This document shows, one piece after another, positions 5,915-62,724 of a stretch of DNA of 64,000 nucleotides; within the stretch, counting starts at the first letter, position 1, and each line of letters opens with the position of its first letter. Below the pieces are notes generated by a model that did no database searches, was not told the origin of the DNA, and saw only the letters and a list, made by a program, of their open reading frames with translations. The translations under genes were made by a program, and so were the position numbers. The stretch is from a virus (lineage: Duplodnaviria; Caudoviricetes): IMG/VR virus record IMGVR_UViG_2974592265_000001, positions 24,404 to 88,403 of that record; one strand, written 5' to 3'.

Positions 5915-8182
5915 TCACTCCCCCACGTTGACGATGTTTTCCGCCAGCGCCTGGTCGGTCTCGCGGTGGGTGATCAGCAGCACCTGCTTGGCGCTTCCAG
6001 CGATCATCGCCGCCAGACTTGCAGCGTTGTGTTCACGGCAGTCGGCAGTGGGCTCGTCGAAGATCAGCAGGCTGTCCTTGCCGTACAGGGCACGGGCCAG
6101 ACCTACACGCAGCGAGACACCGATCATGGCTTTCTGCGCGCCGGAAGCCGACGCTGTAGGAGCGGAAATGCCTTCTTCCATGTAGTAGAAGTCACCCTCG
6201 TCGTTGCTGATCTGCGTGATCAGGTCCTTCGAAGCGGTGCGCACCAACTTGCTGCCCACACCCATGACGGTGTCCCAGACTTCCTTCAGGTACTGCTGAC
6301 GACGGTCACGCAGGAACTGCACCAGGCGCTGGTACTTCTTGGCCAGGGCAACGTGTTCCACGGCAGCGGTGGCGTTCTTCTGCAGCTGCTCCAGCTTCTC
6401 GTTGGCCGCGTCCAGCAGCGAGGTGGCGTGCTTGACTTCCTGCTTGGCCAGGGTAACCGCCGATTCCAACACCTGCTTGCGTTCCTTCCACTCGCTGTGG
6501 GCGGCCTGGTAGGCGGTCTCAGCGGCTTCAGCAGCTTTGACGTCCGCTTCTGTCGGCGGCTCCGGCAACGCCTCCAGCTCGTCGTTCAGGGCCTGCAGAG
6601 TGGCCTTGGTCTCGTCCACCGTCACGCCGGCAGCTGCCAGCGCAGCGTGCTCGCGGTCGTAGGTGGAGTTGGCTTCGGTGATGCCCTTCAGCTTGGCCTG
6701 CATCTCGGCGTAGCTGGTGCGGGACTCACTCAGCTGTCCTGCCACACCGCTGAGCTCGTCTTCAATGATGCCCAGGGCGCGGGCAGGCTTGACGGCTTCT
6801 TTGGCTGCCTTGTCAGCGTTGATCGCATTGTCCAGCTTGACGATGGACGCCTCGTAGCGTGCCAGGGTGTCGGCGCGACCTTTACGGTCTTCCTTCATCG
6901 CGGCGATGTCGGTCTGCAGCTGCGCCACCGAAGCCTTACGGCCCTCCCAGTAGGTACGGGCTTCCTCCGCTTCAGCTTTCAGCTTCTCAGGGTCGTGGTC
7001 TTCCTTTGCCCGTAGGCAAGTCGGGCACACGGCACCGTCGGACAGCATCAGCAGGTTGTCGTAGCTGCCCTTGGCCTTGCCAACTTCTTCCAGGCGTGCG
7101 GCGAGGTCGTCCTGCGAGGTCTGGATCGTTCGGTCCAGCAGGGCGATCTCAATTTCAGAGTCATCAGGCTCGAAGTCCTTCCAGTTGGCGTTGTGCTCGA
7201 CTTGGCAGGTGTCCAGTGCCAGATCAGCCTCATCGGCGGCCAGCTGCAGACGTTTGGCCACGGCCAGCTCGTCGTTCAGAGCCTTCTCGGTGGCGGCCAG
7301 GGTGGTGCCGGAGGTCTTCATGCCTTCCATGTCGGCGAGGATCGCGGCGCCGTCCTGTTTGACCAGACCCATTGTGCGAGCCGCTGCCTCGTCGGCACGG
7401 CTGTTGGCGTGTTTGACGTTGTTCTCGGCCACGGTGATGCGGTTGGACAGGCTGACCACGACGGCGATCTTCTCGCGCAGGGCGAAGGCTGCAGCAGGTT
7501 TCTCCAGATCGAACTCACCCTGGGACTCGCTGTTGGAAACCGCCGTGGCCAAACCAGACCCTGCCTGCAGGCTGGCGTCGGCGGCTGCCTTGGCCATTTC
7601 ACGGGCTTCTTCCATGGCTTCGTCCGAGACGAGGAGGGCGTCCGCCTTGCCGGTGCTGATGGTGGACTGACGCTGTGCTTCGGCCTGGACCTTGTCGATC
7701 AGATCGACGCCGGCGAACTCTTCAACCTTGCGGTTCAGCGCGGCGGCGCCGAACTCGAGGATGGCGGCCGAGCTGTGCTGCTTGGACTGCACGAACAGGT
7801 CCCAGTCCTTGGCCGACAGGCCCAGCAGGGATTCCATCTCGGCGGTGACCGGGGTGCTGCCATTGGCCACCAGGTCGACGCTGCCGTCAGCGTTGGTGCG
7901 GGTCAGCTTGGCGGTCTTGTCGGTGCGCACGCAGCTGTAGATCTCGTCAGCGTGCAGCTGGAAGGTCAGGGTCACCTTCCAGGTCTTCTGGCCCCACGTC
8001 GGGATGTTTTCCTTCTTGCCCGGTACGACGGTGGGGCCGAACAGGGCCACCTGAATGGCCTGCAGCAGGGTGGACTTGCCTTTGGCGTTGTCCCCGGCCA
8101 CGACGTTCAGGCCCTGGGTGAATTCCGCGGTGAAGCTGCCGAGCTTTTTGAAGTTCTCGGTGACGCAAGTTAACAGACGCAT
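5915..8182 (-). CDS. sbcC: SbcC/Rad50-like SMC-family ATPase
   Basis: Walker A GDNAKGKSTLL, long coiled coils with central zinc hook CPTC, signature SASGAQ, Walker B LLIFDEPT, H-loop LLITH. Confidence 0.92.
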   Translation of the reverse strand: MRLLTCVTENFKKLGSFTAEFTQGLNVVAGDNAKGKSTLLQAIQVALFGPTVVPGKKENIPTWGQKTWKVTLTFQLHADEIYSCVRTDKTAKLTRTNADGSVDLVANGSTPVTAEMESLLGLSAKDWDLFVQSKQHSSAAILEFGAAALNRKVEEFAGVDLIDKVQAEAQRQSTISTGKADALLVSDEAMEEAREMAKAAADASLQAGSGLATAVSNSESQGEFDLEKPAAAFALREKIAVVVSLSNRITVAENNVKHANSRADEAAARTMGLVKQDGAAILADMEGMKTSGTTLAATEKALNDELAVAKRLQLAADEADLALDTCQVEHNANWKDFEPDDSEIEIALLDRTIQTSQDDLAARLEEVGKAKGSYDNLLMLSDGAVCPTCLRAKEDHDPEKLKAEAEEARTYWEGRKASVAQLQTDIAAMKEDRKGRADTLARYEASIVKLDNAINADKAAKEAVKPARALGIIEDELSGVAGQLSESRTSYAEMQAKLKGITEANSTYDREHAALAAAGVTVDETKATLQALNDELEALPEPPTEADVKAAEAAETAYQAAHSEWKERKQVLESAVTLAKQEVKHATSLLDAANEKLEQLQKNATAAVEHVALAKKYQRLVQFLRDRRQQYLKEVWDTVMGVGSKLVRTASKDLITQISNDEGDFYYMEEGISAPTASASGAQKAMIGVSLRVGLARALYGKDSLLIFDEPTADCREHNAASLAAMIAGSAKQVLLITHRETDQALAENIVNVGE

Positions 8183-8367
8183 GGCGCCTCCTATGTAGGG
8201 ATAAGTCGCTAGTTAGCGAGAATACACGTTAAAGATGATGGCTGCGATGGCAATGGAAAGCGGGTGAGGGCGCAGGTTGATCTTCGCGGGGCTCTGCCAG
8301 AGCAGGAACGACAGATCGACGGGTTCCCGGTAGGTTGCCCTACCGGTGAACTGCAACGTGCTGTGAC

Positions 8368-11838: not shown

Positions 11839-11868
11839 GGTTCAGTCCTTAAATAGAAACCCCGCTAG

Positions 11869-12390
11869 TTAGCGGGATTTGTGCAGTGTATCCCCTTTGC
11901 AGGGGATCTGGAAATAGTCCGCAAGGAGGTCAGCCACGCGCTGCCGCTGCAGCTTGTTGATCACCCCCACATTCGGCCAGGTGGCCAGTAGGTAACGCTT
12001 GTCTATCCGCACGGTGTCGTGCACCGCAATGCCATCCCACAGCTGGATCACCCCGTTCTGTGCATCCCAGAACAGGATGTAGTAGGGGATCTCCAGCAGA
12101 AACCGGAACCTTGCGATGGCCCCACGCTGCGAAGGACGAACCGCATCCTTCGGCATCGTGATGTTTTTCTCGCTGGCTTTCACCTCGAGGAAACACAGCC
12201 TCTGGTCTCCCAGCAGGTTGCTACAACCTGCTGGAAGCCCGAGAAGGTAATCGCTTGGCTGCTCGGCAATGAGGGACCCTGCGGCCCCCGTGTCGGCGAG
12301 GCGGTGGTAGCTGACCAGCCGCTGCTCAAAGAGCAACTTCATGACCAGCTGCACCTCCTTCTCGAACACCTTACCGATGGAGGCCGCCAC
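11869..12390 (-). CDS. PD-(D/E)xK nuclease, RecU-like Holliday junction resolvase candidate
   Basis: GKVFE...SDYLL...FLEVKAS motif spacing; recombination-gene context. Confidence 0.65.
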   Translation of the reverse strand: MAASIGKVFEKEVQLVMKLLFEQRLVSYHRLADTGAAGSLIAEQPSDYLLGLPAGCSNLLGDQRLCFLEVKASEKNITMPKDAVRPSQRGAIARFRFLLEIPYYILFWDAQNGVIQLWDGIAVHDTVRIDKRYLLATWPNVGVINKLQRQRVADLLADYFQIPCKGDTLHKSR

Positions 12391-44699: not shown

Positions 44700-44763
44700 G
44701 GTGCTTCCTTTTCAGGTGGGGTTGCGGAAAAATTGGGATATTACTCGCTGGTTAGCGGGTTTA

Positions 44764-60131: not shown

Positions 60132-60807
60132 GATTCTAATTCCTTATTGCTAGTGAGTTATGGCAAACCGCCGAAACAGCGGTTTGATCTAAGTCACTAT
60201 GGTTAGTGGTTAGTTACTTCTAAGTACTGAATTCGTTTAGCTAGTAGGGTATGGCGTGTAACAAGTGCCATACCCTGTATCTAGTTAGTTGCTTGTGTTA
60301 CGCACTGGCTTTTGTTTGTTGGTCGGTAAGTCGTCGTATGTAATATCGAATAGATAAGCGGACTAATCCCGTGCCGGTAGCCTAGTGTATTTCGATTAGT
60401 AATGTTAAAGAGTGGGGACAATCTAGTCATAGTCCGGGGCTTTACCGACATCTAACTAACCCGTTGGGTAGTGAGTCTGGCTTGATACCGTTGATAAAGG
60501 CTAATCCCCTATAAATCCCTCTGGATGCTGCATAGGCGCCGTGTGGTTATCGACTACGCTTATAGGTGGAAAGGAAGTTTTAACCCTCGATCGAATGGAA
60601 CAACCTACCGCTGCGCAGGTTATCGAAGGCATGACTTCCCCGTGCCTGGCTTTCGCTAAAATCAGGCAGTGTTGTCGCGGGTATCCGCAAATGGAACTAT
60701 GGCTAATTGTTAAAGAGCGAGCCACGCGCAGGCAGACGGCCGGGGCGGGGCGGTAGCCAAGAAGGCCTACCAGTGGAGCGGTGTTCGTTGTTGCTTGGTA
60801 CACCCAT

Positions 60808-62223: not shown

Positions 62224-62252
62224 TTGACAGTGCTGACGTTCCTCGCTAACTT
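62224..62252 (+). promoter_or_regulatory. Sigma70 promoter for the tRNA/ncRNA transcript
   Basis: TTGACA-17 nt-TAACTT. Confidence 0.8.
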
Positions 62253-62323
62253 GCGGTCTCCGGGCACATGAACACCTGATTTGCGAACACCGGGCCAAGG
62301 ATGGCCCACCCCGGAAGAATCTT

Positions 62324-62397
62324 AGAGGGTTCGCCAAGTGGTAAGGCCCGGGGTTTTGATCCCTGTACCGGTGGTTCGAATCCATCACCCTCTACCA
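62324..62397 (+). tRNA. tRNA-Gln (anticodon UUG)
   Basis: Acceptor stem AGAGGGT/ACCCTCT, D-arm GCC-AAGTGGTAA-GGC, anticodon arm CGGGG-TTTTGAT-CCCTG, T-loop TTCGAAT, encoded CCA. Confidence 0.96.
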
Positions 62398-62401
62398 TCG
62401 T

Positions 62402-62544
62402 TGTACGGAACCCTGAGCCATGCGCCCTCTGCAGAGACGCGGTGAACCGGGGATGGAAGCCCGATAGGAAGTAGGCCTCGTAAGCCGAAATGTCGAATAG
62501 GCGCCAGGATGGCGGAAAAGCCCGGGGTCCAATGGAACCGTACA
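62402..62544 (+). ncRNA. Candidate structured GGA-rich small RNA downstream of the tRNA
   Basis: Closed by a perfect 7-bp stem TGTACGG/CCGTACA; several short hairpins; 7 GGA triplets; followed by a terminator; no convincing ORF. Confidence 0.6.
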
Positions 62545-62550
62545 CACTGC

Positions 62551-62580
62551 AAGCCCCGCCTCCGAGCGGGGCTTTCTTTT
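62551..62580 (+). terminator. Intrinsic terminator
   Basis: AAGCCCCGC-CTCCGA-GCGGGGCTT-TCTTTT. Confidence 0.88.
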
Positions 62581-62724
62581 GCCTCAAAACCCCGCTAATC
62601 TGCGAGTTAAGTCGGCCCGTGCTCCCGCGTCACCTCATCCGCGATCGACCCACGGACAACAGCCACACGCTGTAATCGGGCAAGAAGCCCTAGCCGACGC
62701 CCCTTTAACGAACGGATTCCCACC

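Follow-up and report, generated by a model that had tools for sequence, protein, structure and literature searches.

A tRNA operon of PMBT3-like Pseudomonas phages with a conserved GGA-loop leader hairpin and a mobile trailer RNA module, candidate decoys for host RsmA/RsmE

The window analyzed here, 64,000 nucleotides (nt) forming the right-hand 64 kb of the 88,403-bp IMG/VR virus record IMGVR_UViG_2974592265_000001, carries a non-coding transfer RNA (tRNA) operon in which a tRNA-Gln gene is flanked by two conserved structured RNAs, a GGA-loop hairpin in the leader and an 85-nt core in the 3′ trailer, here called module M. These parts, their conservation and covariation, and the mobility of the module, which recurs in an unrelated type of Pseudomonas phage, are directly visible in the sequences compared. 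We tentatively propose that the leader and trailer RNAs are candidate decoys for host RsmA or RsmE (RsmA/E) made by tRNA processing, a reading of the sequences to which we give nearly, though not quite, an even chance of being right.

The window is related to Pseudomonas phage PMBT3 (Maxrubnervirus, host P. grimontii). Relatives were gathered through the HU-like protein and the conserved leader pattern found downstream of the tRNA unit, and comprise L003, L004, PMBT3 (L005), L006, L007-L009, L110, L111/L101 and L138, plus the more distant UAntarctica; a metagenome scan with the HU leader pattern returned four true family members, one of them new. PMBT3 and UAntarctica are cultured, and the cultured relatives have Pseudomonas hosts. 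Common to all relatives are a promoter of the form TTGAC(A/G)-N17-TAAnnT-GCGGG, tRNA-Gln and a terminator, and the content between them varies.

A conserved, non-coding transcription unit

An earlier note on this DNA had described one promoter-to-terminator unit without a convincing open reading frame (ORF), and this description was borne out: the promoter is conserved, the terminator was found, no ORF in the unit is conserved between the window and the relatives, and all elements the note listed are present to within a base or two of where it had placed them. The sigma-70-type promoter (62224-62252, plus strand, as are all features of the unit) consists of TTGACA (62224-62229) and TAACTT (62247-62252) separated by 17 nt and sits inside the conserved motif TCGCTAAnnTGCGGGC. 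This motif, with the same distance between the -35 and -10 elements, recurs in L003, L004, L005 (PMBT3), L006, L007, L110, L111 and UAntarctica; a strict consensus promoter scan did not call it. Transcription probably starts near 62259. The tRNA-Gln gene (62324-62397), with anticodon UUG and an encoded CCA end, was identified by ARAGORN and by Rfam (RF00005, 55.8 bits), and the computed intrinsic terminator (62551-62582) has a 9-bp stem (62551-62574) followed by a T run. Because L003, which is without module M, has the same terminator, this terminator belongs to the operon and not to the module. No promoter lies between the tRNA and module M. Two small ORFs of 57 and 61 amino acids were rejected as coding candidates; they overrun the tRNA or the terminator, and the relatives differ there by insertions and deletions. 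In Rfam searches at gathering scores and at E values up to 10 the tRNA alone passed, with RsmY below threshold; no other Rfam family fits the leader or trailer RNAs, and neither ARAGORN nor Rfam found a tRNA-like signal in the trailer.

A covarying GGA-loop hairpin in the leader

Between promoter and tRNA, at 62292-62307, lies the hairpin GGGCC-AAGGAU-GGCCC, an ANGGAN hexaloop closed by a C-G pair, which the earlier note had pointed out (as GGGCC-AAGGAT-GGCCC) and which proved to be both conserved and covarying. A hairpin in this place is found in seven distinct relatives (alignment A3), with the hexaloop A(A/C)GGA(U/A) and the C-G closing pair invariant in all seven; the stems otherwise differ, being GGGCC, GGUGUUUC, GACCC, GGGAC, GAGC, UGAGAC and GUCC. 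In this alignment 94% of cells are paired and three stem pairs are changed on both sides (11 cells); none of 500 shuffles reaches the observed pairing score and no slid register comes close. The covariation among relatives that the earlier note had wished to see is therefore present, with stem pairs covarying around a conserved GGA loop, and the GGA stands in the loop of a real hairpin, in an A(N)GGA context closed by C-G, in each of the seven variants. A conserved loop on variable arms implies that the loop is probably read as RNA by a trans-acting factor rather than as a DNA operator. The spacing of the hairpin is not fixed (29-61 nt from the promoter and 15-35 nt from the tRNA).

The C-ANGGAN-G hairpin is reportedly the form of the high-affinity site in structural work on RsmE and hcnA. 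The leader hairpin shares with high-affinity CsrA/RsmA/RsmE sites the A(A/C)GGA(U/A) hexaloop and the invariant C-G closure, and differs from sites of the hcnA type in its position within a tRNA operon leader, where it overlaps no ribosome-binding site. The consensus obtained for CsrA/RsmA by systematic evolution of ligands by exponential enrichment (SELEX) is RUACARGGAUGU, displayed in a hairpin loop (PMC4347634); the leader hairpins of L007 and L110 agree with it at 11 of 12 positions, and the window leader has CCA, not ACA, before the GGA. On this evidence the leader element is a genuine conserved RNA hairpin and a predicted site of the high-affinity CsrA/RsmA/RsmE type.

Such hairpins are rare by chance in a segment of this size. 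On the plus strand of the window there are five ANGGAN hexaloop hairpins with a stem of at least 4 bp (about 0.02 expected per 290 nt) and 11 AGGAN pentaloop hairpins (about 0.05 expected per 290 nt), and the minus strand has three hairpins of the leader form. The others examined lie within genes or antisense to ribosome-binding sites; the leader hairpin is the only intergenic one of its kind in the window. The other AGGAN hairpins of the window were considered as RsmA targets and rejected, being intragenic or antisense to minus-strand ribosome-binding sites.

An outer helix, read from the aligned sequences, joins UCCGGG (62259-62264) to CCCGGA (62310-62315); it spans 62259-62315, encloses the GGA hairpin and would pair the presumed 5′ end of the transcript. 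It appears as UCCGG/CCGGA in L003 and L004 and as UUCGG/CCGAA in L006, the latter a compensatory change.

Structure of the trailer and module M

The trailer comprises 153 nt with seven GGA, starting at 62407, 62451, 62455, 62467, 62507, 62514 and 62534. The earlier note had seen in it a 143-nt segment with seven GGA closed by TGTACGG/CCGTACA, and this is indeed what the sequence contains: a domain at 62402-62544, supported by minimum free energy (MFE) folds and by the alignment, whose outer helix pairs UGUACGG (62402-62408) with CCGUACA (62538-62544) and which holds a palindromic hairpin, CUCUGCAGAG, at about 62428-62437, in addition to module M. MFE folding predicts a closing helix for each of the window, L006 and L111, formed from different sequences (GUGCGC/GCGCAC in L006); the evidence for it is moderate, the register in L111 being ambiguous.

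Module M (62453-62537) is an 85-nt structured core defined by four variants, those of the window, L111, L006 and L264, the last a contig described below. The copies in the window, L111 and L006 are about 90% identical. Its three helices are P1 (62454-62457 with 62528-62531 and 62460-62463 with 62523-62526), P2 (62474-62476 with 62484-62486) and P3, with the loop AGGAU (62502-62505 with 62511-62514). Over the four variants this structure is 100% paired and has four compensatory pairs, and none of 500 shuffles reaches its score. P1 changes from A-U to G-C at columns 5 and 76; P2 occurs as GGC/GCC, CCC/GGG and ACC/GGU; and in P3 of L264 the loop-closing pair changes from C-G to U-A with the loop remaining AGGAY. 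The module has 18 variable columns, most of them compensatory or in loops. For the trailer, too, the comparison of relatives that the earlier note had called for thus yields compensatory changes, in all three module helices. Of the two hairpins that the note had drawn here, CGCC-AGGAT-GGCG at 62502-62514 is P3, conserved with a compensatory change, and CGGG-G-ATGGAA-G-CCCG had to be abandoned, as it is not conserved and its GGA lies in the covarying closing helix.

In this structure the exposed GGA are those at 62467 (junction), 62507 (P3 loop) and 62534 (3′ of P1), with 62514 partly free; the trailer would thus present one canonical GGA loop, that of P3, and two to three single-stranded GGA, with one buried in P1. 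The predicted probability that a GGA is unpaired is 0.52 in the window and 0.65 in L006, compared with 0.55-0.60 in genuine RsmY.

A rod-like fold obtained with RNAalifold fits the four sequences, but it has covariation only at P2 and leaves the double change in L264 unexplained, and was set aside. Module M was also considered as a riboswitch; this reading was dropped, since the HU-like gene occurs with or without the module upstream of it, and in L264 the module stands before unrelated genes. By the evidence of its covariation, module M is a real, well-supported new structured phage RNA, even if RsmA is not its ligand.

Likeness to RsmY and presentation of GGA

In the window's phage genome the module is the only site matched by the Rfam RsmY model (RF00195; 22.1 bits, E 1e-4 per genome), which aligns to it end to end over 62453-62574 (E 0.003 in a local search). 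With the same model L006 scores 17.1 bits, and G002 and PMBT3 have no match at the module; other weak RsmY and RsmZ matches in the genomes of relatives fall in coding DNA and were dismissed as noise. The PrrB_RsmZ model (RF00166) has no match at the module in any of five phage genomes. For closer comparison, rsmY sequences were fetched from about 54 Pseudomonas genomes. The P3 hairpin with its 3′ flank, GCCAGGAUGGCGGA, gives an exact 14-nt match to the central hairpin of RsmY from the P. fluorescens group. When a hidden Markov model (HMM) of 42 RsmY sequences was run against 1.07 Mb of control DNA, the window module ranked first (E 4e-5) and L006 second, and some 90 control loci with the exact 16-mer hairpin scored no higher than about 7 bits.

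Module and RsmY further share a size class (module plus terminator, about 115-130 nt), the motif order AUGGA, 9 nt, AGGAAG, GCCAGGAUGGCGGA, AUGGA, terminator, a first GGA that takes part in a closing helix, similar predicted GGA accessibility and a very similar rho-independent terminator at the end. They differ in that the module has one canonical GGA loop and RsmY several. Unlike RsmX, RsmY and RsmZ, moreover, the module has no GacA upstream box and would come from a phage promoter, as the trailer of a tRNA; no GacA box (TGTAAGN6CTTACA) occurs near the unit, and the 10 three-mismatch matches in the window are the number expected by chance. In design, then, module M resembles RsmY, but it does not belong to that family.

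GGA-loop hairpins are not confined to module and leader. They also occur in non-homologous cargo of the tRNA operons of PMBT3, L138 and UAntarctica, namely GGAGA-AGGA-UCUCC in PMBT3 and L138, GCU-GAGGAU-AGC in PMBT3, and GGAGA-UGGA-UCUCC, CGGCA-AUGGAU-UGCCG and GUCC-AGAGGAUC-GGAC in UAntarctica. Over 1233 nt of non-redundant sequence, 13 GGA lie in hairpin loops where 6.4 would be expected (p ~0.02), which places this triplet second among the 64; the total number of hairpins is at expectation (93 vs. 92 in shuffled sequences, in a first count on a fuller set). This loop excess lends modest support to selection on the presentation of GGA.

Evidence weighed against a role in the Rsm network

Several observations speak against the decoy interpretation. 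The RsmY score of the module lies far below the gathering score of 57, and the same model produces noise of 12-17 bits in the coding DNA of sister phage genomes. The likeness comes down to one hairpin (about 7.5 bits) and the operon terminator (about 9 bits); L264, whose hairpin is a variant and whose terminator is a different one, receives no RsmY score, and a model of module M finds no rsmX, rsmY or rsmZ in four P. fluorescens-group genomes. Since the terminator is the operon's own, L264 scores nothing and the reciprocal search fails, homology with RsmY is not established. The raw GGA count of the trailer is in the top 1% of sliding windows; against composition its density is not significant (p ~0.10 in mononucleotide and 0.21 in dinucleotide shuffles), GGA ranks eighth of 64 trinucleotides across nine relatives, and the conservation of columns in module M shows no preference for GGA (p 0.12). 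The GGA at 62455, first in the module, is paired in the covarying helix P1, two others have their G residues in the outer closing helix or in the P3 stem, the alternative rod-like fold would bury still more, and in the trailers of L111, PMBT3 and L110 GGA accessibility is no better than background. The module itself is missing from L003, L004, L007, L110 and PMBT3, its place being taken by two tRNAs in L003 and by other cargo in L004, L007 and L110. The leader hairpin, finally, being single, offers one site only per RsmA dimer. What remains of the sponge interpretation in the earlier note is therefore the non-coding unit, the RsmA-type leader hairpin and a structured trailer with an RsmY-like AGGAU hairpin; its RsmY/RsmZ-like label, if taken as family membership, does not survive the Rfam scores (there is no RsmZ match either), and the enrichment in GGA is weak.

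One possible explanation for these observations is that the structured RNAs, module M and leader hairpin alike, serve a function that has nothing to do with RsmA, for example as ligand of another host or phage protein, as decoy for another system, or as an element for processing or stability of the tRNA precursor, the GGA being incidental to a purine-rich, tightly folded RNA. We regard this as somewhat unlikely, albeit the main alternative. It would account for junction nucleotides that are invariant as a whole and not at GGA alone, as is typical of a specific tertiary fold, and it agrees with the burial of a GGA in P1, with a GGA density explained by composition, with the unproven RsmY homology and with the mosaic trailers of relatives, several of them poor in accessible GGA. 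It is less easily reconciled with a leader loop that is a near-perfect CsrA/RsmA consensus with C-G closure in all seven variants, with a P3 loop that keeps AGGAY when its closing pair changes, with the recurrence of GGA-loop hairpins in non-homologous cargo, or with the lack of any other fitting Rfam family.

Distribution and mobility of module M

The fourth copy of module M was found by a 15-nt pattern scan in L264, a contig of a D3-like temperate Pseudomonas siphovirus, where it forms a unit of about 115 nt with its own terminator (L264:1160-1340, minus strand). It lies between a methyltransferase gene and genes for neck and tail completion, with no tRNA nearby and with a terminator different from that of the tRNA operon. 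An ATAAAT hexamer resembling a -10 element precedes the conserved core by about 7 nt. The L264 copy looks like an inserted, independently expressed small RNA (sRNA) gene. The presence of module M in an unrelated phage type, without tRNA and with its own terminator, indicates that it behaves as a self-contained, horizontally moving sRNA unit.

In the search for further copies, an exact 16-mer hairpin scan returned 93 stretches, almost all of them chance matches or start-codon contexts; a further exact-pattern scan after the discovery of L264 found no new copies, and the module pattern is absent from the 185,579 bacterial and archaeal species genomes scanned. Model R1, built on module M, finds the same four copies only, and a search of the relatives with it revealed no diverged ones.

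The tRNA operons in which the module is found or missing are themselves variable, with one to three tRNAs per relative. In L006, tRNA-Gln and tRNA-Trp precede the trailer module that the window also has; L003 has tRNA-Gln, tRNA-Met and tRNA-Asp and no trailer RNA; and PMBT3, L007, L110, L111 and L138 display a mosaic pattern of other cargo. In UAntarctica (L357, MZ605292.1) tRNA-Gln, tRNA-His and tRNA-Met stand behind the same type of promoter (940-1345), and the leader and the His-Met spacer contain four hairpins with GGA in the loop. In L138 (RCMZ01000423.1, oriented coordinates 5963-6470) a truncated tRNA-Met, of which the acceptor and D arm remain, joined to the 3′ strand of the acceptor, is directly preceded by an ORF resembling an HNH-type endonuclease, a sign that homing endonucleases may have moved through the tRNA cluster. 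A second conserved non-tRNA element, AGUUCCAGGUUGAAAGCG..AGCCA.UGCGCAGGG..., follows tRNA-Gln directly in PMBT3 (L005:1951-2074), L007 (L007:2230-2300), L110 and L111 (L111:1058-1141) and is absent from the window. Upstream of the terminator, L110 and L111 share a third block, GGAGUAGCUACCCG...CACUGACACACUGAAAGCCCC, of which PMBT3 retains the 3′ part only. The trailers of these relatives are mosaics, built of swappable RNA modules.

Such a hot spot of gain and loss, with its changing number of tRNAs, its broken tRNA-Met beside an HNH-type gene and its swapped cargo, would suit a reading of the flanks as debris, and the partial likeness to RsmY might then be that of a captured host fragment. 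It is very improbable, however, that the flanks of the tRNA are non-functional spacers or decayed remnants, for instance of former tRNA genes or of host rsmY. Four helices carry compensatory changes, the trailer has no tRNA-like signal, and an identity of about 90% in the 85-nt core is seen both where the HU proteins of the phages share only 75% and between unrelated types of phage. Covariation and cross-lineage conservation disfavour such a reading.

The downstream HU/IHF-like gene

The tRNA unit lies in a rightward block with the gene order two genes without assigned function, tRNA unit, HU/IHF-like gene (PF00216, 70 bits) and two small genes; in UAntarctica an annotated terminase large subunit comes after the corresponding block. 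The leader of the HU/IHF-like gene (window 62580-62724) is 83-86% identical across relatives and the HU protein 73-75%. This leader folds as a conserved multi-helix 5′ untranslated region with GUCGGC/GCCGAC, CCGUG/CACGG and two hairpins with compensatory changes, and it matches no Rfam family. Its Shine-Dalgarno region reads ACGGAUUCC in seven of nine relatives and AUGGAUUCC in PMBT3 and L138.

On another reading, RsmA/E would bind the leader hairpin as a regulator and not as a titrated target, and the Gac/Rsm state of the host would thereby adjust how the tRNA operon and the HU-like gene behind it are processed, stabilized or read through. The single high-affinity-type hairpin near the 5′ end is the only family-wide element, the multi-site trailer being optional, and the HU/IHF-like gene has a conserved 145-nt structured leader with an invariant GGAUUC in its Shine-Dalgarno region, both of which would suit such a role. 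We nevertheless hold it to be unlikely. The operon encodes no protein, so that there is no ribosome-binding site for RsmA to occlude in its usual way; between the operon and the HU-like gene lie a terminator and a second promoter-like motif; and the distance of the hairpin to promoter and tRNA varies.

The motif CGCTAAYYTGCG has six copies with at most one mismatch in the window, against 1.0 expected, at 62244-62255 and 62593-62604 on the plus strand and at 8207-8218, 11863-11874, 44746-44757 and 60614-60625 on the minus strand. Two copies are exact, one in the -10 region of the tRNA promoter and one just past the terminator at a site without an obvious -35 element. The motif may be a phage-specific promoter or regulator site.

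Proposed mechanism and comparison with known systems

If the leader and trailer RNAs are RsmA/E decoys, host RNA polymerase would transcribe the non-coding operon from the conserved sigma-70-type phage promoter into an RNA consisting of structured leader, tRNA-Gln(UUG) and 3′ trailer and ending at the intrinsic terminator. RNase P and tRNA 3′-end endonucleases would excise the tRNA, and leader and trailer would be freed as by-products, their ends shielded by the terminal helices and the terminator. The leader hairpin, the AGGAU-loop hairpin and two or three unpaired GGA would bind dimers of host RsmA/RsmE. Because expression would be independent of GacA, as is part of the proposal, the phage could lower free RsmA/E during infection, whereby RsmA-controlled host or phage messages would be derepressed. 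Processing, accumulation, RsmA/E binding, release and the physiological effect on the host are the predicted steps of this scheme.

A sponge freed by tRNA processing is known from E. coli, where 3′ETS-leuZ is the 3′ external transcribed spacer (ETS) of the glyW-cysT-leuZ tRNA precursor. The layout of the phage operon, with a single promoter and terminator between which tRNA and module appear to be co-transcribed, fits a sponge of this kind. In both cases the proposed trans-acting sponge is a processed tRNA 3′ trailer with the operon terminator at its end (3′ETS-leuZ is discussed in bioRxiv 10.1101/2021.04.25.441314). They differ in that 3′ETS-leuZ base-pairs with Hfq-dependent sRNAs, whereas the ligand proposed here is a protein, RsmA/E, and in that the trailer element described here is phage-borne and modular. 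Phage T4 offers another parallel, its tRNA cluster containing two stable non-tRNA RNAs of unknown function, species 1 and species 2. Both systems have a non-tRNA RNA co-transcribed and processed with phage tRNAs, processing being a proposal in the present case; no relation in sequence or structure to the T4 RNAs was detected, and GGA-loop hairpins are not known from them.

The Gac/Rsm switch controls secondary metabolism, biofilm formation and secretion systems and, in some bacteria, anti-phage defences. It is also reported to be linked to the response of Pseudomonas to phage infection (PMC9992862, PMC8450108). Pseudomonas phages that encode CsrA/Rsm proteins, and thus intervene in the Rsm network, have been described (Sobrero and Valverde 2020, PMC7366521); these carry a protein, whereas the agent proposed here would be a decoy RNA. 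No CsrA gene was found in the five phage genomes searched (G000-G004), so that any CsrA-family partner must be RsmA/E of the host. In the literature searched, no phage-encoded Rsm/Csr sponge RNA is described.

Taken as a whole, the proposal is that Pseudomonas phages carry a mobile, GacA-independent sRNA module which, together with the leader hairpin, would act as an RsmA/RsmE decoy, produced as a by-product of tRNA maturation in the lytic PMBT3-like phages and from a stand-alone gene in the D3-like phage, and by which the phage would take over the Gac/Rsm switch. In this full form it is a possibility that we advance with appreciable doubt. Phages are already known to carry CsrA-family proteins, and a phage RNA that sequesters RsmA would, if true, be new: it would be a decoy RNA of viral origin aimed at a global regulator of bacteria, produced from the waste parts of a tRNA precursor and borne by an sRNA module that moves between unrelated phages.

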